The translations under genes and the position numbers were made by a program. Below, in pieces: positions 26,209 to 42,882 of a DNA stretch of 64,000 nucleotides. Below the pieces are notes generated by a model. That model saw nothing but the letters and a program-made list of their open reading frames with translations, was not told the DNA's origin and did no database searches. This stretch comes from an uncultured Poribacteria bacterium (GTDB lineage: Bacteria; Poribacteria; WGA-4E; WGA-3G). Positions within the stretch are counted from its first letter, which is position 1. Every line of letters starts with the position of its first letter. The stretch is taken from assembly GCA_951813545.1 (NCBI GenBank), contig OX638352.1, forward strand, positions 4,736,835-4,800,834. Reading direction: 5' to 3'.

Positions 26209-27294
26209 CTAAATCTCAGGCACTCTCACCGCAATCTCTTTACCGGCTGCATGCGAACGGAAAATACCGTCCATAATCACGTTCGTGAGAAGCACACCCT
26301 CCGGCGGTATTGGGGACGGAGCATCCGCTTTAACCGCTTCACGGAACGCTGTCATCTGGGCTGCCCAGTTATCTTCTTGTGGGAATCCTGAGAACTGGAT
26401 CGTCGTCATCCCTTCCGGTGGGTTTGGTTCCGCTGTTAATCCCTCGGATTCGACAAACTTTTTGAGATCACCATCATACGCATCGGCATAGACAACCGGT
26501 CCATTCAATGAGAAACCCGCTTTCGTCCCAAGATGGAAGTTGCCACCGAGGGAGTCCTGATGCACTGCCCAAGAGATTTTGAACACCATCACACCACCAT
26601 TTTCAAACCGCACCCACGCCGCACCGAACTCCTCAACATCCATGATACCACGGAACCTCGGATCCTGCTGCGAGATGTAATCCTCAGTGATAGCGGAGAC
26701 ACGCACTGGTTTTGGATACCCCATCGCATACAGCGAAGCATGCATATTATAGACACCGATATCGACGGTTGCACCAGCACCTGCTGTCTTCTTATAGATG
26801 AACGTATGTCCTGGGTTCCCGCGCCGCCTGCACCCTGCAGATTCAGAGTAGTAGATATCGCCGAATAACCCGGCATCAAACGCCTTTCTTATGAATTGGA
26901 GTCTCGGGCTAAATGTCGGATTGAGACCGATTTGTAAGATTTTGCCCGATGCTTTCGCCGCTCGGGTCATCGCGGTCGCATCTGGAAGTGTCGCCGCCAT
27001 CGGTTTTTCACAGAGGACGTGTTTACCGGCGTTCAATGCTGCCACTGTCGGTCGCCGATGCCCCTGATTGTAAGTGCAGACACTCACTGCATCAAGTTCG
27101 TCCATTTCGAGCATCTTGTTGTAGCTTGAAAAAGCGTTCTGTTTCGGGACACCCCACTCTTTAGCGGCTTGATTTGCCTTACTTTTGATGATGTCACAGA
27201 CCGCAATGATCTCAAAACCGCCTACTTTCTCGTAGGTGCTCTGGTGCGCACGTGAAATGCCACCTGTACCAATAATACCAACCTTGACAGTCAT
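26209..27294 (-). CDS. Gfo/Idh/MocA-family NAD(P)-dependent oxidoreductase
   Basis: N-terminal Rossmann VGIIGTGGISRAH; 361 aa. Confidence 0.85.
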   Translation of the reverse strand: MTVKVGIIGTGGISRAHQSTYEKVGGFEIIAVCDIIKSKANQAAKEWGVPKQNAFSSYNKMLEMDELDAVSVCTYNQGHRRPTVAALNAGKHVLCEKPMAATLPDATAMTRAAKASGKILQIGLNPTFSPRLQFIRKAFDAGLFGDIYYSESAGCRRRGNPGHTFIYKKTAGAGATVDIGVYNMHASLYAMGYPKPVRVSAITEDYISQQDPRFRGIMDVEEFGAAWVRFENGGVMVFKISWAVHQDSLGGNFHLGTKAGFSLNGPVVYADAYDGDLKKFVESEGLTAEPNPPEGMTTIQFSGFPQEDNWAAQMTAFREAVKADAPSPIPPEGVLLTNVIMDGIFRSHAAGKEIAVRVPEI

Positions 27295-27342
27295 AGTGTT
27301 CTCTCCTTATAACAAATCTTGTATAGAAACAGACGCGATTCG

Positions 27343-28428
27343 CTAAATTTCCGGCACTCTCACCGCAACCTCTTTTCCAGTCTCATGCGAACGGAATATG
27401 CCTTCCATAATTACATTTGTGAGAAGTACACCTTCGGGAGGTATCGGCGATGGTGCATCTGCCTTAACGGCTTCACGGAACGCGGTCATCTGTGCTTCCC
27501 AGACATTGACCGCTGGGAATCCTGAGAACCGGATCGTCGTCATTCCATCCGGCGGGTTCGGCTCTGCTGTCAATCCTTCCGATTTAACCAGTTTCTTGAG
27601 GTCATCCGTATAGGCATCGGCATAGACGACTGGTCCATCCAAGGAGATACCCATTTCTTTACCGAGACAGAAACTGGGACCGAGCGAATCCTGATGAATC
27701 GCCCAAGAGATTTTGAACACCATCACGCCACCGTCTTCAAACCGCACCCACGCGACACCGAACTCTTCAACATCCATAATCCCTCGAAATTGTGGATCTT
27801 GCTGCGAGATGTAGTCTTCAGTAATAGCAGAGACACGCACGGGTTTTGGATACCCCATCGCATACAGCGAGTTGTGCATATTGTAGACACCGATGTCTAC
27901 AATCGCACCAGCGCCCGCCGTCTTTTTGTAGATGAACGTGCGTCCCGGATTTCCACGCCGTCTGCCACCTGAAGACTCGGAGTAGTAGATGTCGCCGAGC
28001 AGTCCTTCATCGATTACCTTCTTCGCAAATTGGAGTCCCGGATTAAACGTGCTGTGGATACCGATCTGCAGGATTTTGCCCGACGCTTTTGCTGCCCGGA
28101 CCATCGCGGTCGCATCTGGGAGCGTCGCTGCCATCGGTTTCTCACAGAAGACATGTTTGCCAGCATTCAACGCTGCCACTGTCGGTCGCCGGTGTCCTTG
28201 GTTGTAAGTACAAACACTCACCGTGTCGATTTCGTCCATCTCAAGCATCTTGTTGTAACTGGTGAAGACGTGCTTTCTCGGTACACCCCACTGATCGGCG
28301 GCTTCGTTTGCCTTGCTTTTGATGATGTCGCAGACTGCAACGATCTCGAAACCGCCTACTGCCGTGTAAGATCGCTGGTGCGCCCGTGAGATACCGCCTG
28401 TACCCACAATACCGACTCGAATCGTCAT
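27343..28428 (-). CDS. Gfo/Idh/MocA-family oxidoreductase, tandem paralog
   Basis: 361 aa, co-linear with 26209..27294 and about 80-85% identical by eye. It carries the same motifs. Confidence 0.85.
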   Translation of the reverse strand: MTIRVGIVGTGGISRAHQRSYTAVGGFEIVAVCDIIKSKANEAADQWGVPRKHVFTSYNKMLEMDEIDTVSVCTYNQGHRRPTVAALNAGKHVFCEKPMAATLPDATAMVRAAKASGKILQIGIHSTFNPGLQFAKKVIDEGLLGDIYYSESSGGRRRGNPGRTFIYKKTAGAGAIVDIGVYNMHNSLYAMGYPKPVRVSAITEDYISQQDPQFRGIMDVEEFGVAWVRFEDGGVMVFKISWAIHQDSLGPSFCLGKEMGISLDGPVVYADAYTDDLKKLVKSEGLTAEPNPPDGMTTIRFSGFPAVNVWEAQMTAFREAVKADAPSPIPPEGVLLTNVIMEGIFRSHETGKEVAVRVPEI

Positions 28429-28556
28429 GTTACTATCTCCTCATGTGTAGAATAGAATTGCTATACGAGTTTAGACGAAATCGGTTTGTAATGCAAGGGG
28501 AAAATGTGATATACTTCAAGGTACATATTCTATATGCTGACAGAAAGGAGAACATC

Positions 28557-29276
28557 GTGAGTATTGATACAGATAAAAGACGACTTTCACAAGTACAGAC
28601 CCCACAAAATATGCGCGGCAATCTGAGCCCGGAACATATATTTAATCAGCTTTATGATGATTTACAAAACGCGAGTCAAGCACAACTGGGTTGGCAGTGG
28701 TTGTTACCATTGCGTTCTGCTGACGTACATCATTTACAATCCTTGGGAATCCCTGCTACTAACGCACAGCAAGATTTTGATGGTTTGGTGCTAAGCCTTG
28801 CCAAGATACTCATTGATTCTCTGAATGAAGAGTCACTGAAAAAGTTGATTCCTTGTGAGAAATGGGAAGCATTTAAAGATAAAAGAGGCATTGCCCTGCT
28901 TGAAGCTGCCTTATCTTTGAATGAACTTAAAGGTGCTGATGTTCACGTTGCCTTTCTACGGAAACTCCAGAGTTTTCGCGCAAGTGGGAGTGTTCATCAG
29001 AAAGAACACAACTATTTAAAAGTCGCTAAGTATTTTGACTTTGGAAGCCAGAGTCCACGGAATGTTTTTGCCAATATACTAAACAGTGCCTCAGATACAC
29101 TGGATTACTTCATTGCTCTTGTAAATAGTGGACGCATACGTGACATTTTTGAAAAGAACCAAATAGCGATCGGATATGCTGGTTTTAGCGATATGATTGG
29201 TATTGCAGATTTTGGCACATCTGATGCCTCTGTCAACCACGACGAAGCCATCTACGAATTACAATCGAAATCATGA
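28557..29276 (+). CDS. Hypothetical protein, upstream partner of the PIN-domain gene
   Basis: Start refined to GTG 28557, preceded by an AAAGGAG RBS. The ORF-track start at 28386 would overlap the divergent gene. Its stop overlaps the PIN gene start (ATGA). No recognisable domain. Confidence 0.45.
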   Translation: MSIDTDKRRLSQVQTPQNMRGNLSPEHIFNQLYDDLQNASQAQLGWQWLLPLRSADVHHLQSLGIPATNAQQDFDGLVLSLAKILIDSLNEESLKKLIPCEKWEAFKDKRGIALLEAALSLNELKGADVHVAFLRKLQSFRASGSVHQKEHNYLKVAKYFDFGSQSPRNVFANILNSASDTLDYFIALVNSGRIRDIFEKNQIAIGYAGFSDMIGIADFGTSDASVNHDEAIYELQSKS

Positions 29277-29683
29277 TTTTTGTTGATACTGGTGGTTGGA
29301 TCGCTATTTTAAATAGGAGAGATCAACACCATCAAGAAGCTGTGGCGATATTCAACAAACTGCAACAGCAGCACATGCGTCTCCTAACTACAGATTATGT
29401 AATTGATGAAACCGTTACTCGTCTCAGATACGACACTAACCACTCACTGGCAGTCATGTTCTTAAACCGTATCGAACTACTTGTGGAAACAGGTGTTTTA
29501 ATCATTGCAGAAATTGATAAGGACATGTTTGAGAAAGCAATAGCACTTTTTCGTCAGTATGACTCGGCACGGTTATCTTTTACGGATTGCACAAGTTTTG
29601 TAGTGTGTCACGAGAATAACATCCGCGAGGCTTTTGCATTTGATCAGCATTTCCCAATAATGGGAATTAACTTGCGCCGATAA
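29273..29683 (+). CDS. PIN-domain ribonuclease (VapC-like toxin)
   Basis: 136 aa. MIFVDTGGWIAI places the first acidic residue. TDYVIDETVT and SFTDCTSF supply further conserved D/E/D residues. Confidence 0.7.
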   Translation: MIFVDTGGWIAILNRRDQHHQEAVAIFNKLQQQHMRLLTTDYVIDETVTRLRYDTNHSLAVMFLNRIELLVETGVLIIAEIDKDMFEKAIALFRQYDSARLSFTDCTSFVVCHENNIREAFAFDQHFPIMGINLRR

Positions 29684-29817
29684 TCTGCCTCGCTTCCCAT
29701 TATCACTTCACCAGTTATTCTATTTTCTTTTAAATTAAACCTAAATTTTGGATAATTTTGGCGATATTTATGTGGTCTTCTCATGCATATCTTGTGAACC
29801 ATTGGAATCATGCCAGA

Positions 29818-30771
29818 CTATCGCCTCAAAATTTCCTCACGATGCCATGCCAAAGCATCTTGAGCAGGATAGAATTCGTCGTGCTCCGGCAGTAGTATCG
29901 GCTTATCGCGCAAGGTCGTTAGCGTCCACTCTGTAGGTCCACGCTCCAACATAAGTTCTGAAACAATAACCTTGTAGTTTCTATCGACGGAAATTAAGCC
30001 TCTATCAAAAGACCAGTGATGCAGTTGACAAAGGGAAATCCCATTCCGCACATCGTTATTTCCTGAAACCTTGAACGGAATGATATGGGCAGCTTCAGTT
30101 ATACTTTCGCCGTCCAGTGTTAGAACATACAATTGACAAACTGCACAGGTATAGTTGTAGATTCTCATGATTGCTCGGCGGAAACCAGCAGTCCGAATTG
30201 GCTTTTCTGTTTTGATTTGTGCCAACGGTTGTAAGGATGAAAATGTGTGTTTAACTTGCCGTAGTAGTGAACGTCTGTACTTATCAATCTGTTGTTTTTC
30301 AGTTATTAGGCTTTCAATTACTTGCTTAAAATCTGCGAAATAGGTATTGACAAGGGTTTGACGGATTACCTCTCTATCATGAGTATCAGTAAGTAAAAGA
30401 AATAATTCATCATCAAAACTCGCGTACGCAATCACCTCACGAATACGAGAAGCCGTTTTAAGTTGAGATGCAACGCCTAATGCTGTTTCATATCCAGGGT
30501 TTGGGTGGAGATGCCAGAATCCTTCGCTCTTTAAATGGAAAAATGGCATGGCAATATTAGGTTTCCTATCCGTTAGCTTAGACCAATATTTCAGAAAAGC
30601 CTCCGCCAACTCCGGGGAAAGGACTATTTTATTTTCGGGAATCTGTCCTTGTTCAATGCGTTCAATAACTGCTAACAGCAGGAGAGGTTTATTAGGTGCT
30701 GCGCCACGTGCTCTATCTATTCGCAATTTCTCCATCTTTCGGATATATTTTTGGAGGATGTTGGTAGACAT
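29818..30771 (-). CDS. HNH endonuclease with an uncharacterised N-terminal domain (candidate restriction/defence nuclease)
   Basis: C-terminal HNH motif HIIPFKVSGNNDVRNGISLCQLHHWSFD. The N-terminal ~200 aa (APNKPLLLLAVIERIEQG ... SEGFWHLHP) were not assigned to a family. Confidence 0.65.
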   Translation of the reverse strand: MSTNILQKYIRKMEKLRIDRARGAAPNKPLLLLAVIERIEQGQIPENKIVLSPELAEAFLKYWSKLTDRKPNIAMPFFHLKSEGFWHLHPNPGYETALGVASQLKTASRIREVIAYASFDDELFLLLTDTHDREVIRQTLVNTYFADFKQVIESLITEKQQIDKYRRSLLRQVKHTFSSLQPLAQIKTEKPIRTAGFRRAIMRIYNYTCAVCQLYVLTLDGESITEAAHIIPFKVSGNNDVRNGISLCQLHHWSFDRGLISVDRNYKVIVSELMLERGPTEWTLTTLRDKPILLPEHDEFYPAQDALAWHREEILRR

Positions 30772-30950
30772 TTTTTTTCGTGATACCCTCTGGTGTTTGG
30801 CAGAGAAATTTCGTAAAAATTAACTGTTCTCTAATACAGAATTTTATCATATATCACGAAAAAGTCAATTTTTGTTTGAAGAAGTAAGATAGACGGTATT
30901 AACCGATGCCCACAGGCAAAACGAAGTTCTATAATCCAGTTAAGTTTTTC

Positions 30951-30979
30951 TTGACATTTCTGTTTAACCGTGTTATGCT
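30951..30979 (+). promoter_or_regulatory. Sigma70-like promoter upstream of the FGE/CCP cluster
   Basis: TTGACA (30951..30956), a 17-bp spacer, then TATGCT (30974..30979). It lies about 70 bp upstream of the ATG at 31047. Confidence 0.45.
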
Positions 30980-31046
30980 GAATCAGACGATGCAGGTTAG
31001 ATAACATTACAATCGATTTGAAATTGCAGGCGAGGAGGAAAGGAAA

Positions 31047-31844
31047 ATGAAAAGGGTATTTTGTTTTGCTTGTGCCTTGGTGCTAATTTTCACAGGGCAC
31101 ACATTTGGACAGGATGTCGCTGTTTTTTATGACGCAGCGGTTGAAAATGGTGGCGGCTTAGCCGTTCCGAACCCGAAGCAGTTAGCAGAAATGATGGTAG
31201 AGGAGCTTGAGGCAAAAAAACTAACTGCTGAAATTGTGGATAGCGACGAGTTAGCGGAGTATATGAAGGCGAACCCCAAGGGTATCTATATCATCACGCA
31301 AGGGAATACCCCTGGCACGATATTTAAAAAAGAAGGCAAGAAAGACCTTGTTTATACATGGCTAAGAGAAGGCGGGATCGGCGGATTCATCGGCGATTAC
31401 GCGTTCTACTATTATTGGGATAAGGGAGCGCGTGTTACTGCTGCCGGTGCCGGGCAACAAAGCGTGTTTGGTGCTACAATCACAAACGGCACAGTCTCGC
31501 AAGTCAGCCCAACGGATCTTGGGAAGGAGCTCATCCCTTCTCTCAAGAAGTGGAGTTCAAATCGCGCATCAGGTCTTGCTGTTTTGAAGCAAAACGATTT
31601 TGAGTATGAAAGTTATGCCGATGACGGTGTAAACGCAGATCCAATCGCTTACCGCACAAAAGACATGGAGGGATGGTTTATCAACTTCCATACTTCATGT
31701 TGTGGAACAGTCATACCACCGAATGATCAGATCGCTACCGAGTACGCAGAACTGATTTCAAATCGTTTTGCAACTGCAAAAGCAGTAGATCCAACTGGTA
31801 AAGTGAGTGTCGTCTGGGGACGGCTCAAAAAATCACGACAGTAG
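31047..31844 (+). CDS. Secreted protein of unknown family, paralog 1 of 3
   Basis: Signal peptide MKRVFCFACALVLIFTGHTFGQ. Shares VA(I/V)F, (E/Y)GG, DY(I/A)FY and C-terminal D-P-x-G-K-x-x-V-x-W-G-x-(L/I)-K motifs with 35391..36197 and 36303..37124. Confidence 0.5.
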   Translation: MKRVFCFACALVLIFTGHTFGQDVAVFYDAAVENGGGLAVPNPKQLAEMMVEELEAKKLTAEIVDSDELAEYMKANPKGIYIITQGNTPGTIFKKEGKKDLVYTWLREGGIGGFIGDYAFYYYWDKGARVTAAGAGQQSVFGATITNGTVSQVSPTDLGKELIPSLKKWSSNRASGLAVLKQNDFEYESYADDGVNADPIAYRTKDMEGWFINFHTSCCGTVIPPNDQIATEYAELISNRFATAKAVDPTGKVSVVWGRLKKSRQ

Positions 31845-31969
31845 CACCTCGTCATTGGAACTATTTGTTAACCTGTAGCCCCAATCCCCATATTGGGGCT
31901 ACAACCAATTTGTACCGACAGAAACTGTGATGACGGAATACCGACCGTTGACAGTTTAGACCATACACC

Positions 31970-32839
31970 ATGCCACGAAAAATTATGTTCCTCCCACTAT
32001 TAACTAACTTTGGTATCAAAGCAACAGTGAAACATTGCGCCATCTTATGTTTCTTTATTGGCTTAAGCGTTAACCTGACTTCATGCGGTGACGATGAGAG
32101 TCCAGAGGAGCTGACGGATTCGCAAACATCTCTGGAGGCTTCCGACACCCGAATTGATGTTGAAGAGATGGTTTTGATTCCAGCAGGAGAGGTTCGGCTC
32201 GGCACGGATAGCAAGACCAACTTGACGTTCGGAACAGAAGCCGACCTTCGGACAGTTTTTGTCGCAGCGTTCCACATCGATAAATATGAGGTTACAAACA
32301 AACAGTACGCAAAATTCCTCTTGGAGACTGGACATCGGAAACCGAAGTTCTGGGATGATCCAAGGTTGAACACTCCAGATCAACCGGTTGTGGGAGTCAA
32401 TTGGGAAGACGCTGAGGCTTACGCTGTATGGGCTGGCAAACGGCTACCTACCGCGAGTGAATGGGAGAAGGCGGCGCGTGGTATAGATGGTAGACTTTAT
32501 CCGTGGGGAAATGATTATGATGCGACGCGCGGCAATTTCGACGATGGTGGAAGGATGGACGGTAGCACGGATGGCTATGCAATGACTTCTGCACCTATCG
32601 GGAATTTTATAGAGGGTATAAGTCCGTATGGACTCCATGATATGGCAGGAAATGTTTGGGAATGGATAATGGAAGACCCAGGACAGTCGAAAGCGACAGA
32701 TGAGAAAACCTATGCAATTCGTGGGGGATCATGGACGAACGGCGCGGGGGATACACGAACAACGGTCGCTTATATCTACCCAGCACAATGTAGCGATCAT
32801 AGCAGTTCCGTTGGATTCCGTTGTGCAAGGACACCTTAA
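31970..32839 (+). CDS. Formylglycine-generating enzyme (FGE/SUMF1) family protein, lipoprotein
   Basis: GVNWEDAEAYAVWAGKRLPTASEWEKAARG and RGGSW motifs. N-terminal signal with Cys (NLTSCGDD). Confidence 0.8.
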   Translation: MPRKIMFLPLLTNFGIKATVKHCAILCFFIGLSVNLTSCGDDESPEELTDSQTSLEASDTRIDVEEMVLIPAGEVRLGTDSKTNLTFGTEADLRTVFVAAFHIDKYEVTNKQYAKFLLETGHRKPKFWDDPRLNTPDQPVVGVNWEDAEAYAVWAGKRLPTASEWEKAARGIDGRLYPWGNDYDATRGNFDDGGRMDGSTDGYAMTSAPIGNFIEGISPYGLHDMAGNVWEWIMEDPGQSKATDEKTYAIRGGSWTNGAGDTRTTVAYIYPAQCSDHSSSVGFRCARTP

Positions 32840-32948
32840 ACCTCTGATGCAATCTTTCATAGTAGTAGACGCACGCTGCGTGCACTAACAGAGCAATTAA
32901 AAATCGACGAATGTGGTTACTGAACTGAATTCCTAAAAGATAACACTT

Positions 32949-33857
32949 ATGCGAGATACATTGAAATCCGTAATCTGTTTCCTGATGTTGTTAGGCGTGA
33001 TCCTGATGGGTTGTGGCAGTGATGAACAGATGCTGGTTGAAGAAGAAACGGAAGAAATTCAAATCATTGAGATGCCAGTGGTAGAAGTCGTACCTGAACC
33101 GATACCGATAGACGTACCAGCAGGTATGGTATACGTCCCCACTGGGGAATTTATCATGGGCAGCGATCCGGATGTTGATCCAATGACGGATGCGCTCGAT
33201 GAACTCCCGCAGCACAAGGTGTTTTTGGATGCCTATTTTATTGATAAACATGAAGTGTCGAACGCCGACTACACCAAATTTGTTGAAGCCACCGGACACC
33301 GGAATTCAATCTTCTGGGATAACCCGAAGTTTAATCACCCTGACCAGCCGGTTGTGGGTGTGACCTGGGGCGATGCAGCCGCTTATGCAGCGTGGGTTGG
33401 GAAACGCCTGCCTACTGAAGCGGAATGGGAGAAGGCAGCACGCGGCACCGACGCACGCATTTGGCCCTGGGGCAATGAATTCGATCCGACGAAATGCAAC
33501 TTCGATGATGAGGGAAAATTTGACGGACATCTTGACGGTTTTGCGATGGCAGCACCGGTAGAGAGTTTCGAGGGGGGTGCGAGTCCGTATGGTGCATTCA
33601 ACATGGCAGGGAATGTCGCAGAATGGGTTGCAGATTGGTTTGACGCAGAATACTACGCTGTCAGTCCTGCGGAAAACCCGAAAGGTCCTCCAACGAGTGG
33701 GATGGGGAAAAAATCGTGGCGGGGTGCAAGTTGGTTCGCCGGTCCAGATCAGATGCGGTGTGCATTCCGAGAATATGACGACATTGTCGCGAGTGGACAG
33801 ATAATCGGATTTCGGTGCGCGAAAGATGCGATGCAAGATGCACCGAGAGTCGAGTGA
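32949..33857 (+). CDS. Formylglycine-generating enzyme (FGE/SUMF1) family protein, lipoprotein, tandem paralog
   Basis: GVTWGDAAAYAAWVGKRLPTEAEWEKAARG and WRGASW motifs. Lipobox LMGCGSD. Confidence 0.8.
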   Translation: MRDTLKSVICFLMLLGVILMGCGSDEQMLVEEETEEIQIIEMPVVEVVPEPIPIDVPAGMVYVPTGEFIMGSDPDVDPMTDALDELPQHKVFLDAYFIDKHEVSNADYTKFVEATGHRNSIFWDNPKFNHPDQPVVGVTWGDAAAYAAWVGKRLPTEAEWEKAARGTDARIWPWGNEFDPTKCNFDDEGKFDGHLDGFAMAAPVESFEGGASPYGAFNMAGNVAEWVADWFDAEYYAVSPAENPKGPPTSGMGKKSWRGASWFAGPDQMRCAFREYDDIVASGQIIGFRCAKDAMQDAPRVE

Positions 33858-33896
33858 ACCAACCAGCCCCTTAGCCAGCCGACCTAAATCGAGAAC

Positions 33897-35186
33897 TTGA
33901 CTTTACAATTTGGGAATATTAATTTGATGATGCGTTTCATAACGATTTGGATAATATCCAGCTGCGCGTTATTGCTCTTCGGGTGCGGTGAGGAAGAACT
34001 TCCAGAAATGACAGCGATGCCTGAAGAAAAGGATGATATATTCACGGAACGCGAGTGGGCGGTTATTCAACGTTTATCTCCGCTGCCTGACACACCACCG
34101 CCTAACCCTACGAATCGTGTTGCCGATAATCCAGATGCCGCTCGGTTAGGGCAAATGTTTTTCTTCGACGAGCGATTTTCAAAGGACGGAACGGTTGCTT
34201 GTGCAACATGCCATTCACCATTTCATGGGTTCGCTGATGTTGAGGCGACTTCATTGGGCGCGGGGAGAGGAACGAGAAACGCACCAACACTGCTCAATGC
34301 TGCCTATAACAAATGGCAGTTTTGGGACGGTCGCGCAGATACACTGTGGTCGCAAGCACTAAGTGCGCTTGAAGGTGAGGTGGAACAAGCCGGCACAAGA
34401 CTCCAGTATGCACATCTCATCAATAAGCACTATGAAGTCGATTATGAAACCGTATTCGGTGCACTTCCGGATCTTGAGGATGCAACACGTTTCCCACTTG
34501 ATGGAAAACCGGGAGACTCAGATTTCGATAACATGTCCGAAGCGGACCGGCGAGCGGTTAACACCGTCTTTGCAAATATCGGTAAGGCAATTGAGGCTTA
34601 CGAACGTCTCTTGATTAGCCGGAATGCACCGTTTGACCGGTATGTAGCAGGCGAGGCAGAGGCGATCACACTTGAAGCGAAGCGTGGGTTAAAAACATTC
34701 ATCGGTAAAGGTGTTTGTATCCTCTGTCACGATACGCCAACTTTTACAGACAACGATTTCCATAATTTGGGTATCCCGCAAGGTGCGTTGCCAGAGGACA
34801 CTGGGCGTTATGCCGGAATCTCTTTGCTCTTAGCAGATCCGTTTAACGGTGGCGGCATCTATAGTGATAATACCGCAGTTCCTACACGGATTTTAAACTT
34901 TTTGGAGCCAATACCGCAACATCAAGGTGAGTTCAAGACACCAACGCTTCGTAATGTGGCACTAACGGCACCCTACTTTCATACGGGTGAATTTCCGACG
35001 CTCGAATCCGTTATTGAATTCAATAATGTCGGTGGCACGGGTGGTAATTTTGCCGGTAGACGAGAAGGGACACTGGAACCGCTTCATCTCAATCAACAGG
35101 AAAAAGAAGATTTGGTCGAGTTTTTAGAAACATTGACAGGCGAATTACCGTCTACCCATTTGTTAAGGAAGCCCGCTCTGCCATAG
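33897..35186 (+). CDS. Di-haem cytochrome c peroxidase (CCP/MauG family)
   Basis: Two CxxCH haem-binding motifs (CATCHSP, CILCHDT). N-terminal signal with Cys. Conserved CCP block PTLRNVALTAPYFHTGEFPTLE. Confidence 0.85.
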   Translation: MTLQFGNINLMMRFITIWIISSCALLLFGCGEEELPEMTAMPEEKDDIFTEREWAVIQRLSPLPDTPPPNPTNRVADNPDAARLGQMFFFDERFSKDGTVACATCHSPFHGFADVEATSLGAGRGTRNAPTLLNAAYNKWQFWDGRADTLWSQALSALEGEVEQAGTRLQYAHLINKHYEVDYETVFGALPDLEDATRFPLDGKPGDSDFDNMSEADRRAVNTVFANIGKAIEAYERLLISRNAPFDRYVAGEAEAITLEAKRGLKTFIGKGVCILCHDTPTFTDNDFHNLGIPQGALPEDTGRYAGISLLLADPFNGGGIYSDNTAVPTRILNFLEPIPQHQGEFKTPTLRNVALTAPYFHTGEFPTLESVIEFNNVGGTGGNFAGRREGTLEPLHLNQQEKEDLVEFLETLTGELPSTHLLRKPALP

Positions 35187-35390
35187 ACACAATCAGGAAC
35201 GTGATTCTGAAACTTAGGGCTGCTGGGGAAATAAATTAATTTGACTTCAATTAAGGAATCGGGTATAATAACTGAGTTAGGGATATAGACAATTCTTCGT
35301 TTTTTGGAAAAATTATGGAATTCAGTCTGTGAATGCTCTAATAGTATGAGACGAGAGCATTCACTTTGCCGATTAACAAGAGGAAATTAC

Positions 35391-36197
35391 GTGAAAAAAT
35401 TGATAATCATTGCCATGTTTATAATGTGCTACTTCGCTTTGCCGAGCATCGGTATATCTGCTCCGATGGGAGAGGTGGCAATCTTTACAGAGCAAGCCGG
35501 ATGGATGGGGCAGCCTACTGCCGTTGAGGAAGGGAAGGAAATGCTAAACATGCTCAAAACCCCGGCGGATGTTGTGGTATTAACCGATAAAGAGATTGGC
35601 AAATGGGCAGAGGACCACACCGATAATGGCGTTTCTGATATTATCGTAACATTCGGTTGGTTCCCGACAACCTTATATACCCCCGGTAATGTTGATCCTG
35701 ACGGTTCAATCGCTGAAGAATTCCTTGAAGGCGGAAATGTTTTCCTTAATACTGCGGATTATATTTTCTACGTCACACAAGGCGGCGGTGCCAACGGTGA
35801 ACAGGGCTTGAAGAATATGATGGATATCAACGCCGATATGTGGTCCGATGGTACAGCTATCAAACCCACTAATGATGGTAAGAAGTATACCCCTACCCTT
35901 AAAGCCTTTACCTCAGCGCGGACTTTCAAGGAAAAACAGATTGTTGATCCTTGGGAAGTTGAGGTAGTTTTTGGTGATAATGGGGCAGGATTCTTGGATC
36001 CCGCGATTGTCCATGATACCGAAACCGACGGTCGTATCGGAATTGCCTATCAAGTACCAGGTGACGATGGGCTCCCACGGGGCGAACTTTTCACCGAAAT
36101 GATTGATAACTACCTGTTTGAAGTGCTCGGTCCCCAATCAGTTGACCCAAATCAAAAGGTTGCTACGACCTGGGGACATCTTAAATCAAGTTTTTAA
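35391..36197 (+). CDS. Secreted protein of unknown family, paralog 2 of 3
   Basis: Start refined to GTG 35391, after an AAGAGGA RBS. Signal peptide KKLIIIAMFIMCYFALPSIGISA. Long stretches shared with 36303..37124 (FGWFPTTLYTPGN, ADYIFYVT(Q/E)GGGANGE, NADMW(S/G)DGTAI, KYTPTL). Confidence 0.5.
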   Translation: MKKLIIIAMFIMCYFALPSIGISAPMGEVAIFTEQAGWMGQPTAVEEGKEMLNMLKTPADVVVLTDKEIGKWAEDHTDNGVSDIIVTFGWFPTTLYTPGNVDPDGSIAEEFLEGGNVFLNTADYIFYVTQGGGANGEQGLKNMMDINADMWSDGTAIKPTNDGKKYTPTLKAFTSARTFKEKQIVDPWEVEVVFGDNGAGFLDPAIVHDTETDGRIGIAYQVPGDDGLPRGELFTEMIDNYLFEVLGPQSVDPNQKVATTWGHLKSSF

Positions 36198-36302
36198 CCC
36201 ACTATTGTTGGAAACCACTATAGTAACTCAGGTTCTATAACCTATTGCTCCAGCAATATCTTTAGTATAGTTGGAGCAAACTCAAAAAGAAAGGAAAAAC
36301 TA

Positions 36303-37124
36303 ATGACACGCAGTGTATTAACACTATTTGTAGTTCTGTTAATGGTTACATGTACTATTTCAAGTTGGGCTTTAGGTGATGTCGCTATCTTCAGCGAAAA
36401 TACTGGCTGGATTTCCAAAGAAAACGCGGATATTCAACGCGCTATAGTCTTTGACAACCTTAAAGGCACTGTTGGTTCCGTTGGTGACATTGTTTATGCA
36501 ACCGATGCAGAAATCGGGCCGTGGGCAGAAGAACGCATTGATGACGGCAAGGCAGATATCCTCATCATTTTTGGTTGGTTCCCAACAACCCTCTATACCC
36601 CGGGAAACTCGCAGGTAGATGACTCCATCGCCGAACGATTCCTCTACGGTGGAAATATCATCCTCAATTGCGCCGATTATATCTTCTACGTTACTGAAGG
36701 TGGTGGTGCTAATGGTGAAAACGGTTTGAAGACCATCATCAACATCAACGCCGATATGTGGGGCGACGGGACAGCGATTACGCCGACAGCCGATGGCGAA
36801 AAGTATACGCCAACACTTGAAGCGTATACTTCCAATAGACCTTTCAAAAGTGAACAGATCGTTGATCCCTGGAGCGTTGAAGCCGCTTTCGGTGATAACG
36901 GTGCTGGATTCTTTGACCCTGGTATTATCAAATTGAACGATAGTAGCGGACGGGTCGGTATCTGCATGCAAGAAGGAAATAACGGTGAATTGCCACGCGG
37001 ACAGATACTTATCGAAATGATTGATTTCATTTCACAACAACCTGATGTGGCTGGTGCGACGACACCTGTTGAACCAACTGGGAAAGCAGCTGTTATTTGG
37101 GGCAATATCAAAGCCACACGTTAG
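36303..37124 (+). CDS. Secreted protein of unknown family, paralog 3 of 3
   Basis: Signal peptide. About 55-60% identical by eye to paralog 2. Conserved C-terminus VIWGNIKATR. Confidence 0.5.
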   Translation: MTRSVLTLFVVLLMVTCTISSWALGDVAIFSENTGWISKENADIQRAIVFDNLKGTVGSVGDIVYATDAEIGPWAEERIDDGKADILIIFGWFPTTLYTPGNSQVDDSIAERFLYGGNIILNCADYIFYVTEGGGANGENGLKTIININADMWGDGTAITPTADGEKYTPTLEAYTSNRPFKSEQIVDPWSVEAAFGDNGAGFFDPGIIKLNDSSGRVGICMQEGNNGELPRGQILIEMIDFISQQPDVAGATTPVEPTGKAAVIWGNIKATR

Positions 37125-37436
37125 TCTGACCGTAAAGCCAAAACATTCCGCTCTTATGTTCTCGCCTTTAAGGTGCGAATATAAGAGCGTTTTTTATGGA
37201 TGAATAGCATCTGCCTATAGTGCTCAAGAATGGCAAATCAAGTCGGGAATCGGAGTTCCCTCCTACGGGTGTGTAAATATTTTGGCAGCGTTCCCTTATA
37301 GAGCGGTTTTACGCCGACAGCCCCTCGTCAACGTACATAGCACTCCGCTGGAGTGCTATGTAAACAAACCGGTCCTATCAAAAAAATTAAGGAAACCGTG
37401 ACAAAAACTTTACACACTTCCCTCCTACAGAGGTTC

Positions 37437-37465
37437 TTGACAAGCCGCCGCAAATTCTGTATAAT
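37437..37465 (+). promoter_or_regulatory. Consensus sigma70 promoter for the 37490 operon
   Basis: Perfect TTGACA (37437..37442), a 17-bp spacer, then perfect TATAAT (37460..37465). GGAGG follows at 37476..37480, then a TTG start at 37490. Confidence 0.55.
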
Positions 37466-37489
37466 AGATAAGCGTGGAGGAAATATACT

Positions 37490-37963
37490 TTGAAACAGAT
37501 TATCACACACGCAGACCCAGACCTCGATGCTATTGTCAGCGCATGGATCGCTCAAGATTTTCTTTTCCGACAGACCGCATCAGAGGTACTGTTTGTGAGT
37601 CGCAAAGTACCCGAAAGGCTTATGTTACATGCCGACTGTGTGGTAGATGTTGGGAACACATATTCTCCTGAGAATTACCGGTTCGATCACAAGCCTCCGG
37701 CATTTCGGAATAGAAATGGCACCTGTGCAACTCGGCTTATCTGGGAATATCTGATCAATATTGGTGTTGATGTCGCGTATCTTGAGCCTTTGGTACAGAT
37801 AACATATCAAGGGGATACACACCGGAATTCGGAGGCACTTAAACAGAGCCGAATCGATGGACCACATGCCGAATTAGCCAGACTCAAAGCAGAATATAAA
37901 GAGACGACAGAGGTCTATCGAGAGATGGTTCTCTGGCTGAGGAGTTATACAAAAAACTTATGA
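37490..37963 (+). CDS. Small hypothetical protein with DHH-phosphoesterase-like N-terminal motifs
   Basis: 157 aa. HADPDLDAIVSAW resembles DHH motif I. VVDVG and FDHK are possible motifs II/III. It is far shorter than canonical DHH proteins. TTG start with a GGAGG RBS. Its stop overlaps the next gene start. Confidence 0.4.
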   Translation: MKQIITHADPDLDAIVSAWIAQDFLFRQTASEVLFVSRKVPERLMLHADCVVDVGNTYSPENYRFDHKPPAFRNRNGTCATRLIWEYLINIGVDVAYLEPLVQITYQGDTHRNSEALKQSRIDGPHAELARLKAEYKETTEVYREMVLWLRSYTKNL

Positions 37964-39270: not shown

Positions 39271-39888
39271 TGGGTTTCTTCTTTTTAGCCAAAGATCGAG
39301 AGCCTGAAACGAAGTGAAAGGGTTTTTGCTTGGGGGTTTCTTCAGATCTACGTAAAAGAATGTTAAATCCCAAACTATACTAACCGAACCACAAGGAATA
39401 ATTAAGAATAGCGGGTTTCTTTTTTTTACCCAAAGATCGTGAGCCTGAAACGAAGTGGAGGGCGGATCTACGTAAAAGAACGTTAAATCCCAAACCATAC
39501 TAACCGAACCGCAAGGAACAATTAAGAATAGCGGGTTTCTTCTTTTTAGCCAAAGATCGCGAGCCTGAAACGAAGTGGAGGGCGGATCTACGTAAAAGAA
39601 CGTTAAATCCCAAACCATACTAACCGAACCGCAAGGAACAATTAAGAATAGCGGGTTTCTTCTTTTTAGCCAAAGATCGCGAGCCTGAAACGAAGTGGAG
39701 GGCGGATCTACGTAAAAGAACGTTAAATCCCAAACCATACTAACCGAACCGCAAGGAATAATTAAGAATAGCGGGTTTCTTCTTTTTAGCCAAAGATCGC
39801 GAGCCTGAAACGAAGTGGAGGGCGGATCTACGTAAAAGAACGTTAAATCCCAAACTATACTAACCGAACCGCAAGGAATAATTAAAAT
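39269..39888. repeat. Tandem repeat, 5 units of ~120 bp (first unit 141 bp), filling the whole PQQ-M16 intergenic region
   Basis: Unit AGCGGGTTTCTTCTTTTTAGCCAAAGATCGCGAGCCTGAAACGAAGTGGAGGGCGGATCTACGTAAAAGAACGTTAAATCCCAAACCATACTAACCGAACCGCAAGGAACAATTAAGAAT. Unit boundaries at 39410, 39530, 39650 and 39770. Units 3 and 4 are identical. The array ends 1 nt before the ATG at 39889. Confidence 0.9.
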
Positions 39889-42882
39889 ATGGAAACAACT
39901 CGGACACCAGAGGTAAACTTACGTCCCGGCGAACAACTTCACGGCTTTGAGGTGAAAGCCGTTACACCGATCGACGAATTGCGAGCAGTGACAATTGAAT
40001 TGGCACACCAACATAGCGGTGCCCGCCTGCTACATCTCTATACAAACGATACGGAAAATCTCTTCTCCATTAATTTCCCGACCCCGCCATCAGACGATAC
40101 CGGCGTACCCCATATTCTTGAACATGCTGTTTTGGCAGGCTCACACAAATTTCCGGTTAAAGAGCCCTTCTTTGAAATGATTAAAATGAGCATGGCAACA
40201 TTTATTAACGCCATGACAAGTGCCGATTTTACATGCTATCCGGTATCAAGCAACGTAAAAAAAGACCTTTTCAACTTGGCAGAAGTTTACTTTGACGCGG
40301 TCTTCCATCCACTACTGACCGAAAATACTTTCAAGCGTGAAGGACATCATCTCGCACCCGTCGATCCGGATGACCCTACAGGCGATTTAAAGATAACGGG
40401 TATCGTCTATAATGAGATGAAAGGCGCATTCTCAGATCCTGAAGCTCGGTTATATCGATCAATGACATGTCAACTCCTTCCAGATACGCTTTACGCATGT
40501 GAATCCGGCGGCGATCCAGATGCCATTCCGGATTTGACCTACGCGCAGCTCAAAGGATTTCATGAAACCTATTATCACCCAAGCAACGGCTATTTCGTTC
40601 TGTACGGGGACATTCCGACGAGCGACTATCTCACGTTCCTCGCCGATAAGTTAGATAAAATCCCAAAGAATGCTGCGAGTGCCTCTCTACGACCGCTAAG
40701 CCCGGAGGTCACACACCAACCGAAGTGGGATGCGCCACGGGCTGTAACGGATACCTACCCTGTCGGCGCAGATGAAGCACTCACAGAAAAAACATATATG
40801 ATGCTCAGTTGGTACATCGGAGAAGCGACCAAACCGGAAGCAGTTGTTTTAGGACGCATTTTGAGCCTTATACTGCTTGGCAATGAAGCCGCACCGCTCC
40901 GTAAAGCGATAATCGATTCCAAACTCGGTGCAGACCTCATCTATTCCGGTGCCAGTTCCATCGGACCCGCAGCTACTTTTCACGTTTCCCTCAAAGGGAG
41001 CGAAGTCGATCGCGTTGAAGCCTTCACACAACTCGTCACCGATACCCTAACAGCGATTGCGAATTCAGAGATTAATAACGAAAAGGTGGAAGCAGCGTTC
41101 CAACAAGCGACATACTATTACCAAGAAGTCGCTTCAATGTTCCCGCTCCGCATGCTCTACCGTGTCATTGAAGGCTGGATATATGAAAAAGATTCGGACA
41201 CCTTCCTAAAGATGGGAAAAACGCTGACTGATGTTCGTCAGCAGTGGCTGGAAAATCCATCAATTTTCAACGACTTCATCCGCGAGCATCTCATTGAGAA
41301 TCCACATCGTCTGACAAGTGTGTTGTCTCCTGATCAGGACATGCAGGCGAAAATGGATGCTGAACTCGCCGAACGGATGAAAGAGACACGGACACAACTC
41401 ACTGATGAAGAGGTACGGCAAATCGCCGCTGATGCTGCGGAACTCGAACGCCTCAACGGCGTCCCCAATTCGCCGGAAGCACTCGCAAATCTGCCACAAC
41501 TCCAAGTCAGCGATCTTCCCGATAAACCGAAACATTTTCCGAGAACAGTCGAAAATGTCGGTGGTCGGGATCTGCTCCGCAGCGATGTTTTTGCCAATGG
41601 TGTTAACTACCTTGTGCTCAACTTCAATTTACACGGGTTACCACAGCACCTCTGGACCTATCTACCCAGATATGCTGACGCTATTAGCAAACTCGGTGCC
41701 GCTGATATGAGTTATGAAGAGATGGCACAGCGGACATCTGCCGTCACCGGTGGTATTGGATGCTCACCGTGGTTTTCTACACACACACTCGATGCCAATC
41801 GTTCCATGCAGAGTATATCCTTTCACCTCAAAGCACTCGATGGGAAAATGGATGCCGCGCTCGATGTCTTGCACGATTTACTGTTTGCTGTGAACCCACG
41901 CGATACGGAACGCCTCCGGGACGTACTGGTTCAAGCGGTTGCAGAATATCAGACAGAAATGATCCACGACGGCTCAAGTACTGCGGTTCATCACGCTTCA
42001 CGTGGACTTTCGTCGAATGCGCATCTCGCCGAAATCATCTATGGTCTACCCCAACTCCGCAACAGCGAAACGCTCTTCAACGATTTTGACGAACTTCATA
42101 CCGACCTTATGGGTCATATAGAAGGAGTTCGCGATTTCCTGCTAACCCGTGAACGGGTGACCGCCAGCTTCACCGGTTCGGATACCGCTTTTGAAACGAC
42201 GCGAACCAAACTCGGTGAGTGGCTTGACGCGATGCGGAACGAGCCTGTTATTTCAGAACCGATTGCGTTCCAGCAGTTTGATACACCACCGAGAGAGGGA
42301 TTAGCCGGTCCCATTCAGATTGCGCATTGTGCGCATGTAATGCCGGCACCGCACTACTCCGATCCGGATTCAACGCTGCTGACGATCGGGGCGCATCTCA
42401 TTCGACTGGATTACATACTGAGTGAAATCCGCTTTAAAGGCAACGCTTATGGTGCCAGATTCAGCTATAGTCCTTATGACGCAGTCCTGTGTCAATCCTC
42501 GTATCGCGACCCACACGTCGCACGCACGATCAACGTCTTCGAGCAAACCGTTGATTACGTTAAACAGGTGGAATGGACACAAACAGACATAGACCGCGCG
42601 ATTATTGCTACGGCAAAAGATGGTGAGAAACCGATGCGTCCAGGTTTAGCTGCGAGAGAGGCACTGAGTCAACATCTTGTGGGGCAGACGCGCGAGATGC
42701 GAGAGGAACGCTACGCGCAACTCCGACGTGCCACCCCTGCTGAGGTGAAACGCGCGCTCCTTCAACTTTTAGAGGGAAACCGAGATAAAGCCGCGGTGTG
42801 TGCCGTTTCCAGTCGTGAAAAACTGGAAGCCGCAAACAGTGAATTAGCACAACCGCTTGTCATTGAGGATATTTTATCCTAA
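39889..42882 (+). CDS. M16C-family zinc metallopeptidase (PreP/pitrilysin-like)
   Basis: 997 aa. Inverted zinc motif HILEHAVLAGS (HxxEH) and downstream NEMKG glutamate. Length is typical of M16C. Confidence 0.8.
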   Translation: METTRTPEVNLRPGEQLHGFEVKAVTPIDELRAVTIELAHQHSGARLLHLYTNDTENLFSINFPTPPSDDTGVPHILEHAVLAGSHKFPVKEPFFEMIKMSMATFINAMTSADFTCYPVSSNVKKDLFNLAEVYFDAVFHPLLTENTFKREGHHLAPVDPDDPTGDLKITGIVYNEMKGAFSDPEARLYRSMTCQLLPDTLYACESGGDPDAIPDLTYAQLKGFHETYYHPSNGYFVLYGDIPTSDYLTFLADKLDKIPKNAASASLRPLSPEVTHQPKWDAPRAVTDTYPVGADEALTEKTYMMLSWYIGEATKPEAVVLGRILSLILLGNEAAPLRKAIIDSKLGADLIYSGASSIGPAATFHVSLKGSEVDRVEAFTQLVTDTLTAIANSEINNEKVEAAFQQATYYYQEVASMFPLRMLYRVIEGWIYEKDSDTFLKMGKTLTDVRQQWLENPSIFNDFIREHLIENPHRLTSVLSPDQDMQAKMDAELAERMKETRTQLTDEEVRQIAADAAELERLNGVPNSPEALANLPQLQVSDLPDKPKHFPRTVENVGGRDLLRSDVFANGVNYLVLNFNLHGLPQHLWTYLPRYADAISKLGAADMSYEEMAQRTSAVTGGIGCSPWFSTHTLDANRSMQSISFHLKALDGKMDAALDVLHDLLFAVNPRDTERLRDVLVQAVAEYQTEMIHDGSSTAVHHASRGLSSNAHLAEIIYGLPQLRNSETLFNDFDELHTDLMGHIEGVRDFLLTRERVTASFTGSDTAFETTRTKLGEWLDAMRNEPVISEPIAFQQFDTPPREGLAGPIQIAHCAHVMPAPHYSDPDSTLLTIGAHLIRLDYILSEIRFKGNAYGARFSYSPYDAVLCQSSYRDPHVARTINVFEQTVDYVKQVEWTQTDIDRAIIATAKDGEKPMRPGLAAREALSQHLVGQTREMREERYAQLRRATPAEVKRALLQLLEGNRDKAAVCAVSSREKLEAANSELAQPLVIEDILS

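Follow-up and report, generated by a model that had tools for sequence, protein, structure and literature searches.

Findings

We have studied a cluster of six genes, here called A to F, in a window of 64,000 nucleotides (the whole stretch of DNA that was analysed) from an uncultured member of the Poribacteria (assembly GCA_951813545.1, contig OX638352.1, positions 4,736,835 to 4,800,834). An earlier note, made from the sequence of this window alone, had described six co-oriented genes behind one promoter and read them as a module for the oxidative maturation of secreted proteins. The genes themselves are confirmed: six open reading frames (ORFs) in the list for the window, all on the plus strand and at the coordinates first reported, are judged to be real (Table 1). 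B and C encode lipoproteins with the fold of formylglycine-generating enzyme (FGE), D encodes a di-haem lipoprotein, and A, E and F encode secreted proteins with a predicted ThuA-like fold and, judged by eye from the translations, ordinary signal peptides. The start of E is most likely the GTG at 35391, behind the putative ribosome-binding site AGAGGAAA, which gives a protein of 268 rather than 297 residues.

Table 1. Coordinates of the genes, C-terminal tags and promoter-like sites of the cluster in the window, and of tagged genes at other poribacterial loci
Feature	Position	Strand	Description
P_A	30951..30979	+	sigma70-type promoter-like site, TTGACA-17-TGn-TATGCT, upstream of A
A	31047..31844	+	265 aa, Sec-secreted, distant member of the family with predicted ThuA-like fold
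A C-terminal tag	31776-31841	+	at end of A
B	31970..32839	+	lipoprotein, FGE-sulfatase fold without the catalytic Cys pair; PF03781 3e-53; lipobox LTSC
C	32949..33857	+	lipoprotein, second FGE-sulfatase fold without the catalytic Cys pair; PF03781 2e-57; lipobox LMGC
D	33897..35186 (probable start ATG 33927)	+	di-haem lipoprotein of the CCP/MauG superfamily; PF03150 3e-42; lipobox LFGC
P_E	35241..35269	+	sigma70-type promoter-like site, TTGACT-17-TATAAT, upstream of E
E	35391..36197	+	268 aa, Sec-secreted, predicted ThuA-like fold; GTG start behind AGAGGAAA
E C-terminal tag	36132-36194	+	at end of E
F	36303..37124	+	273 aa, Sec-secreted, predicted ThuA-like fold, 51% identical to E
F C-terminal tag	37059-37121	+	at end of F
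Tagged gene, L034	16008-17198	-	C-terminal tag
Tagged gene, L037	11376-12167	-	C-terminal tag
Tagged gene, L041	11520-12308	-	C-terminal tag
Tagged gene, L046	17826-20672	-	C-terminal tag

Two FGE-fold lipoproteins that cannot be FGEs

B and C, which are 41% identical to each other, match PF03781 with 181 and 195 bits (gathering cut-off 23.3), and the lipoprotein cysteine of B is conserved in 39 of 39 orthologues, those of C and D being likewise kept; the description of B and C as tandem FGE/SUMF1-family lipoproteins was sound. Their closest solved relatives are true FGEs (about 4e-42). In human FGE the cysteines C336 and C341 form the catalytic copper-binding pair. When C is aligned to the human enzyme the first of these falls on an Ala and the second in a deletion, and B has no Cys anywhere in the equivalent loop. 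The same loop lacks Cys in all of the approximately 80 orthologous sequences recovered and is otherwise strongly conserved (RGGSWTNGxGDTR in B), which argues that the Cys-less loops are under selection. With both catalytic cysteines lost, B and C cannot make formylglycine; a true FGE function is rejected for them and for every orthologue, and the oxidative FGE-like chemistry first attributed to them is not supported. In agreement with the earlier note, the window contains no sulfatase-like gene, and the FGE target motif C/S-x-P/A-x-R is not conserved in A, E or F, the mature form of E having no Cys at all. B and C thus share with FGE/SUMF1 a full-length PF03781 domain and the nearest solved structures, and differ from it in the missing cysteines, in being lipoproteins, and in the absence of a sulfatase or a CxPxR target from the window.

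Their best NCBIfam match is GldK/PorK (1e-28 for B and 6e-36 for C), at 101 and 125 bits where the model, TIGR03525, requires 350; the scores for PvdO (62 and 76 against 500), EgtB (95 and 105 against 360) and SenA are also far below the cut-offs. Orthology with PorK/GldK is rejected on these scores and on the unrelated neighbours, no gldL/M/N-like (porLMN) gene being found nearby. Cys-less FGE-fold proteins function only in company with a partner, be it a domain or a separate protein, and the FGE-like domain of EgtB, for example, has its DinB domain; PvdO serves in pyoverdine maturation, and PorK/GldK and GldJ are lipoproteins of the type IX secretion system (T9SS) and of gliding. B and C resemble PvdO, PorK/GldK, GldJ and the FGE-like domain of EgtB/OvoA in having an FGE fold without the Cys pair and an envelope location, and PorK/GldK also in being lipoproteins, but the low NCBIfam scores set them apart and the partner here would be a ThuA-like domain. 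They belong to the large group of Cys-less FGE-fold proteins, which serve as structural or substrate-binding partners and do not generate formylglycine. A limited search of the literature did not find a pairing of ThuA-like and Cys-less FGE-fold proteins.

An undescribed family of secreted proteins with a predicted ThuA-like fold

E and F are close paralogues (51% identical), and A is a distant one (about 25% identity to either in a full-length alignment; BLAST E-value 5e-9 over the C-terminal 122 residues), so that the grouping of all three as paralogues stands for E and F and holds in a looser sense for A. As had been supposed, none of them matches a family in Pfam or NCBIfam. Nor did the 32-member set made up of A, E, F and 29 diverse relatives give any Pfam hit at E-values up to 1, PF06283 included, and a profile of these 32 sequences found no match among the sequences of the Protein Data Bank (PDB). 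The fold predicted for the family is ThuA-like/class I glutamine-amidotransferase-like, in agreement with the guess made in the earlier note; it resembles 1t0b, 4jqs and the middle domain of GH42 beta-galactosidase, at 7-14% sequence identity. From ThuA itself (PF06283) the proteins differ by the lack of a sequence match, by being secreted, by their C-terminal tag and by the occurrence of the family domain in tandem arrays. At the level of sequence, A, E and F thus represent an undescribed family.

A profile search of 1.84 billion representative sequences retrieved 356 clusters with this domain. Many are large secreted proteins with two to eight tandem copies, or with one copy followed by other modules (Laminin_G_3, F5_F8_type_C (discoidin), PA14, fn3, GH99, cohesin and dockerin, and also PKD, Ig, LRR, FG-GAP and LDL-receptor repeats), and these proteins often end in a T9SS-type C-terminal domain. 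At one locus (L051 3394-13190, P0121 and its neighbour, GCA_963986435.1), two adjacent giant proteins carry four and five tandem ThuA-like domains and have Cys-rich C-termini.

Independent links between the two families

The association of ThuA-like with FGE-like proteins is found outside the cluster as well. A second, diverged cluster (L010 11427-14037 and L015 2020-4533) opens with two tagged ThuA-like genes (34-39% identity to E) and ends with a gene for an FGE-fold lipoprotein, 43-50% identical to C and again without the Cys pair; it contains no di-haem gene, and in L010 it adjoins the main cluster, just downstream. Moreover, the 649-residue lipoprotein P0258 (L050 4725-6674) is a natural fusion of a ThuA-like domain (residues 51-287) with a Cys-less PF03781 domain (395-645), and has no C-terminal tag. 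In the main cluster the numbers are balanced, two FGE-like genes standing with two ThuA-like genes, E and F. Taken together, the fusion, the repeated adjacency and the two-plus-two gene numbers fit partner subunits better than an enzyme and its substrate.

Conservation across Poribacteria

We compared 46 loci from species-representative genomes, with gene maps made by tblastn. All 46 are poribacterial, and all named homologues of F belong to Candidatus Poribacteria. In 32 of these loci, each of them at species level, B, C, D, E and F occur together, even where protein identity has fallen to about 70%. The arrangement is A-B-C-D-E-F in 15 loci, B-C-D-E-F in another 15, and D-B-C-D-E-F and B-C-D-E in one each; five loci are partial or rearranged (D-E-F, D-B-E-F, B-C-E-F and two E-F-B-C), four have just E-F, although the contig reaches at least 9 kb to either side, two have divergent tandem E-like genes only, one (L046) has an F-like gene alone, and on two the contig is too short to judge. 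A is thus present in just 15 of the 46. The flanks vary by lineage: a PQQ-like propeller gene and an M16 peptidase gene lie downstream in the window and in L001, and L003 has an ABC ATPase gene upstream and a citrate synthase gene downstream. That the flanks differ while the five-gene core stays suggests that the core is linked by more than recent common descent, and the neighbourhood, whose conservation had been named as something to check, is indeed conserved. L034, which has the same upstream genes as L003 and lacks B-C-D, indicates that the linkage is strong and not obligatory. The cluster is a conserved, phylum-specific module of the poribacterial cell envelope.

A di-haem protein outside the recognised ligand classes

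D matches CCP_MauG (PF03150, 3e-42) and has two CxxCH motifs, CATCH and CILCH, both invariant in its orthologues; its QFWDGRAD aligns with 'qfwdgrae' of bacterial cytochrome c peroxidases (bCCPs), and the Trp of this motif (W143, invariant in the orthologues) is presumably the inter-haem residue. In MbnH (6e1c), the Tyr in 'vidiYsegg' is presumably the haem ligand. In an alignment, which is not spectroscopy, this stretch pairs with 'viefNnvgg' of D, with Asn at the position of the Tyr; EFNNxGG is invariant in the orthologues, whose loop offers no conserved Tyr. The haem in question, the E haem, is ligated by His and Met in canonical bCCPs and by His and Tyr in MauG-type enzymes, the group of MauG, MbnH and BthA (PMC11892367). 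The Met of Paracoccus CCP (2c1u, 'avkiMss') aligns with a Phe of D, and the orthologues conserve no Met in residues 366-396. Unlike the activatable bCCPs, D has no distal His in its LGAGRGTRN loop; its best PDB match, the MacA entry 4aao, has Gly in the distal-His loop, where the next-best MacA entry has His. For the N-terminal half of D the nearest relatives are canonical bCCPs, MacA and CcpA among them (about 1e-40), and the C-terminal half aligns best with MbnH 6e1c.

Two assignments are therefore rejected: orthology with MauG or MbnH, on the Asn and on NCBIfam scores far below the cut-offs (162 bits against 443.85 for MauG, TIGR03791; 155 against 362.85 for MbnH, TIGR04039), and identity with a canonical bCCP, on the Phe at the Met position and the missing loop Met and distal His. 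By its E-haem ligand loop, as far as the sequence can tell, D fits neither the His-Met nor the His-Tyr class, so that the earlier assignment to the di-haem CCP/MauG family survives, and the narrower label of MauG-type does not. Only poribacterial orthologues appeared among its best 120 matches. From an alignment of 10 orthologues, AlphaFold 2 (AF2) gave a model of D too poor for use (pLDDT 43).

D resembles MauG, encoded with pre-methylamine dehydrogenase, and MbnH, encoded with MbnP, as a periplasmic di-haem enzyme of the CCP superfamily that is encoded beside secreted proteins, with two CxxCH motifs and the FWDGR Trp and without the distal His and Met ligand of bCCPs. It differs from both in the invariant Asn at the Tyr position, in its scores and in being a lipoprotein, and its neighbours, with no NCBIfam match, are not like methylamine dehydrogenase or MbnP.

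D also extends past the usual end of the CCP domain (residues 416-429), with invariant His421, Leu422, Pro426, Leu428 and Pro429; this extension could provide the absent E-haem ligand.

A portable C-terminal tag

A, E and F share a C-terminal pattern, V-[DE]-P-x-x-K-x3-[TV]-W-G-x-[IL]-K, after which only a few residues follow. This tail, with its invariant Trp and two invariant Lys, is predicted to be disordered in the model and has no transmembrane segment, and no C-terminal sorting-domain model was matched in an NCBIfam scan of the three proteins. When other proteins are included the pattern widens to V-[DES]-P-x-x-K-x3-[TV]-W-[GA]-x-[ILV]-K plus one to six residues. Such an ending is found on 124 ORFs in 0.96 Mb of poribacterial DNA, seven of them outside the ThuA-like family, namely single-domain LamG-like proteins and a PD40-type propeller. 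A profile of the tripled tail gave 49 short fragments with E-values of 0.06-10, individually not significant, which on inspection clearly carry the tag, here after LamG, discoidin-like, DUF1080-like and ankyrin-like sequences (labels given by eye, except for LamG, PF13385). Conversely, P0048, which is 83% identical to F, has a dockerin and a T9SS-type domain in place of the tail. The tail is thus a portable tag, not specific to the cluster, and its presence on unrelated proteins weakens the case for it as a private target of D.

Promoters and transcription units

The promoter scan gave 10 of 12 consensus matches and an extended -10 for P_A, whose elements TTGAC and TGTGTTAT are kept in an alignment of 14 species, and 11 of 12 for P_E. 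The spacer between D and E varies from 177 to 1011 bp, and in the nine species compared P_E, as TTGAC(A/T)-17-TATAAT, is its sole conserved block; this leaves a single promoter without support and argues for two transcription units. The cluster is best read from these sites as P_A driving (A)-B-C-D and P_E driving E-F. Hence the sigma70-like promoter-like site originally noted does exist, and a single-operon organisation is rejected on the second conserved promoter-like site before E.

Between P_E and the start of E, the leader contains a perfect 9-bp inverted repeat (35331-35362, GAATGCTCT-N14-AGAGCATTC). Its letters are not conserved; it forms a weak hairpin, weakly kept in eight species, with one compensatory pair, and an Rfam scan of 30500-37600 gave no match.

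Neighbouring features of the window

Upstream of the cluster lie two tandem paralogues which, by eye from their translations, are Gfo/Idh/MocA-like oxidoreductases (26209-28428, minus strand). The variable stretch after this pair (28386-30771) comprises a 296-residue ORF without assignment and genes for a PIN-domain protein and an HNH_2 endonuclease; the last stands just upstream of P_A, and HNH recurs upstream of A in several species. Downstream, an intergenic tandem repeat (39345-39889, 120 bp x 4.6 copies, 97% identity) separates the gene for the PQQ-like propeller from that for the M16 (PreP-like) peptidase and yields a spurious, repetitive minus-strand ORF of 159 residues.

Discussion

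The maturation hypothesis loses its main props, since B and C lack the residues for FGE chemistry, D does not belong to the MauG type, and the domain of the paralogues is a widespread surface module. We think instead of a possible envelope-tethered complex that has ThuA-like proteins and Cys-less FGE-fold lipoproteins as its partner subunits, in which the FGE-fold lipoprotein would bind and anchor a soluble ThuA-like partner, the two being joined in a single chain in P0258, and D would be a peroxide-using accessory, present in the commonest version of the module. Poribacteria are uncultured, abundant symbionts of sponges, and their life in the host matrix is presumably mediated by proteins of the envelope and surface. 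The likely target would be a glycan or glycoconjugate of this matrix, whether extracellular or periplasmic, a glycan being suggested by the LamG, discoidin, PA14, GH99 and cohesin/dockerin modules that stand beside the ThuA-like domain in relatives. We put the probability of this scenario as a whole at roughly 40%.

Several points weigh against it. We infer that B and C pair physically with E and F, and likewise what D does and what the substrate is. A single AF2 model underlies the fold assignment, and its TM-score, about 0.5, is moderate; a fusion like P0258 would also suit an enzyme-substrate pair that modifies itself. Neither the second cluster nor the E-F-B-C loci nor B-C-E-F contains D, which makes it the looser member. 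E-F without B-C-D occurs in four species, where B-C-D may lie elsewhere in the genome, and there is no FGE or CCP gene within 8 kb of the giant ThuA-like genes of L051; to judge by such sequences, the ThuA-like domain can work without FGE/CCP partners. The earlier note had named paralogues without such neighbours as a finding that would tell against its own proposal, and these giant multidomain proteins, together with the four E-F pairs, are such a finding in part. By the same token, tandem and multidomain occurrence without these neighbours indicates that the ThuA-like domain serves generally as an extracellular module and is no substrate reserved for the cluster.

The arrangement of a substrate with its maturase, now in a form in which D, drawing on H2O2, would oxidise or cross-link some residue in A, E or F, and B and C would be peptide-binding chaperones, is in our opinion unlikely, though it survives better than the other alternatives. 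MauG and MbnH are encoded beside their protein substrates (PMC11892367), and the synteny here is conserved; D shares with these enzymes the lack of the bCCP distal His and Met, and its C-terminal half is closest to MbnH, but it scores far below the cut-offs for both and has an invariant Asn instead of the Tyr ligand that defines the MauG type and goes with bis-Fe(IV). The candidate target would be the invariant Trp of the tail, accessible (like the two invariant Lys) if the tail is disordered as predicted, or another conserved Trp or Tyr; yet the same tail is found on various proteins encoded away from D, among them LamG, PD40-propeller and discoidin-like ones. Finally, FGE chemistry is impossible for B and C, ThuA-like and FGE-like genes pair without D, and E-F occurs with no B-C-D nearby.

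Somewhat less probable still is that the genes are adjacent without sharing a mechanism, D being a periplasmic, peroxide-detoxifying peroxidase and the others independent surface or adhesion proteins, co-inherited in a young and syntenic phylum. This would suit the resemblance of the N-terminal half of D to canonical bCCPs, its position as the least tightly linked gene, the long and variable D-E spacer with its own promoter, and the general use of the ThuA-like domain as a surface module. However, D lacks the canonical His-Met E-haem loop, the five-gene core remains intact despite lineage-specific flanks, and in the fusion, as in the second paralogous cluster, ThuA-like and FGE-like proteins are joined independently of shared ancestry of the locus.

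True FGE binds an extended peptide in a groove. By loose analogy with PorK/GldK and GldJ, B and C might then form a sorting or attachment machine that recognises the C-terminal tag and holds tagged proteins at the envelope, and the GldK/PorK match, the portability of the tag between families, the peptide groove and the alternative C-terminal signal of relatives such as P0048 can be quoted for it, but we consider it improbable, because the GldK scores are too low and B and C are nearer to true FGEs, gldL/M/N-like genes are missing nearby, the tagged LamG genes of L037, L041 and L046 have no FGE-like neighbour, and P0258 is untagged. Bolder, and in our view quite improbable, is the speculation that the tail is a new C-terminal recognition signal which B/C-type Cys-less FGE-fold lipoproteins would bind in the FGE peptide groove, D oxidising or cross-linking the invariant Trp or a Lys; if true, an uncultured phylum would have a new chemistry for tagging or attaching proteins.

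We found nothing relevant in the literature on clusters of FGE with CCP, on ThuA with cytochrome c, or on Poribacteria with formylglycine or sorting signals. The superfamilies at this locus are known, and it is their combination that is new. It brings together an undescribed family of secreted domains with a predicted ThuA-like fold, spread over the 356 representative clusters, a repeated evolutionary partnership of this domain with FGE-fold lipoproteins devoid of FGE chemistry, a di-haem enzyme that by its ligand loop would fall outside both recognised classes, and a portable C-terminal tag, and each of these offers a handle for structural or biochemical work.

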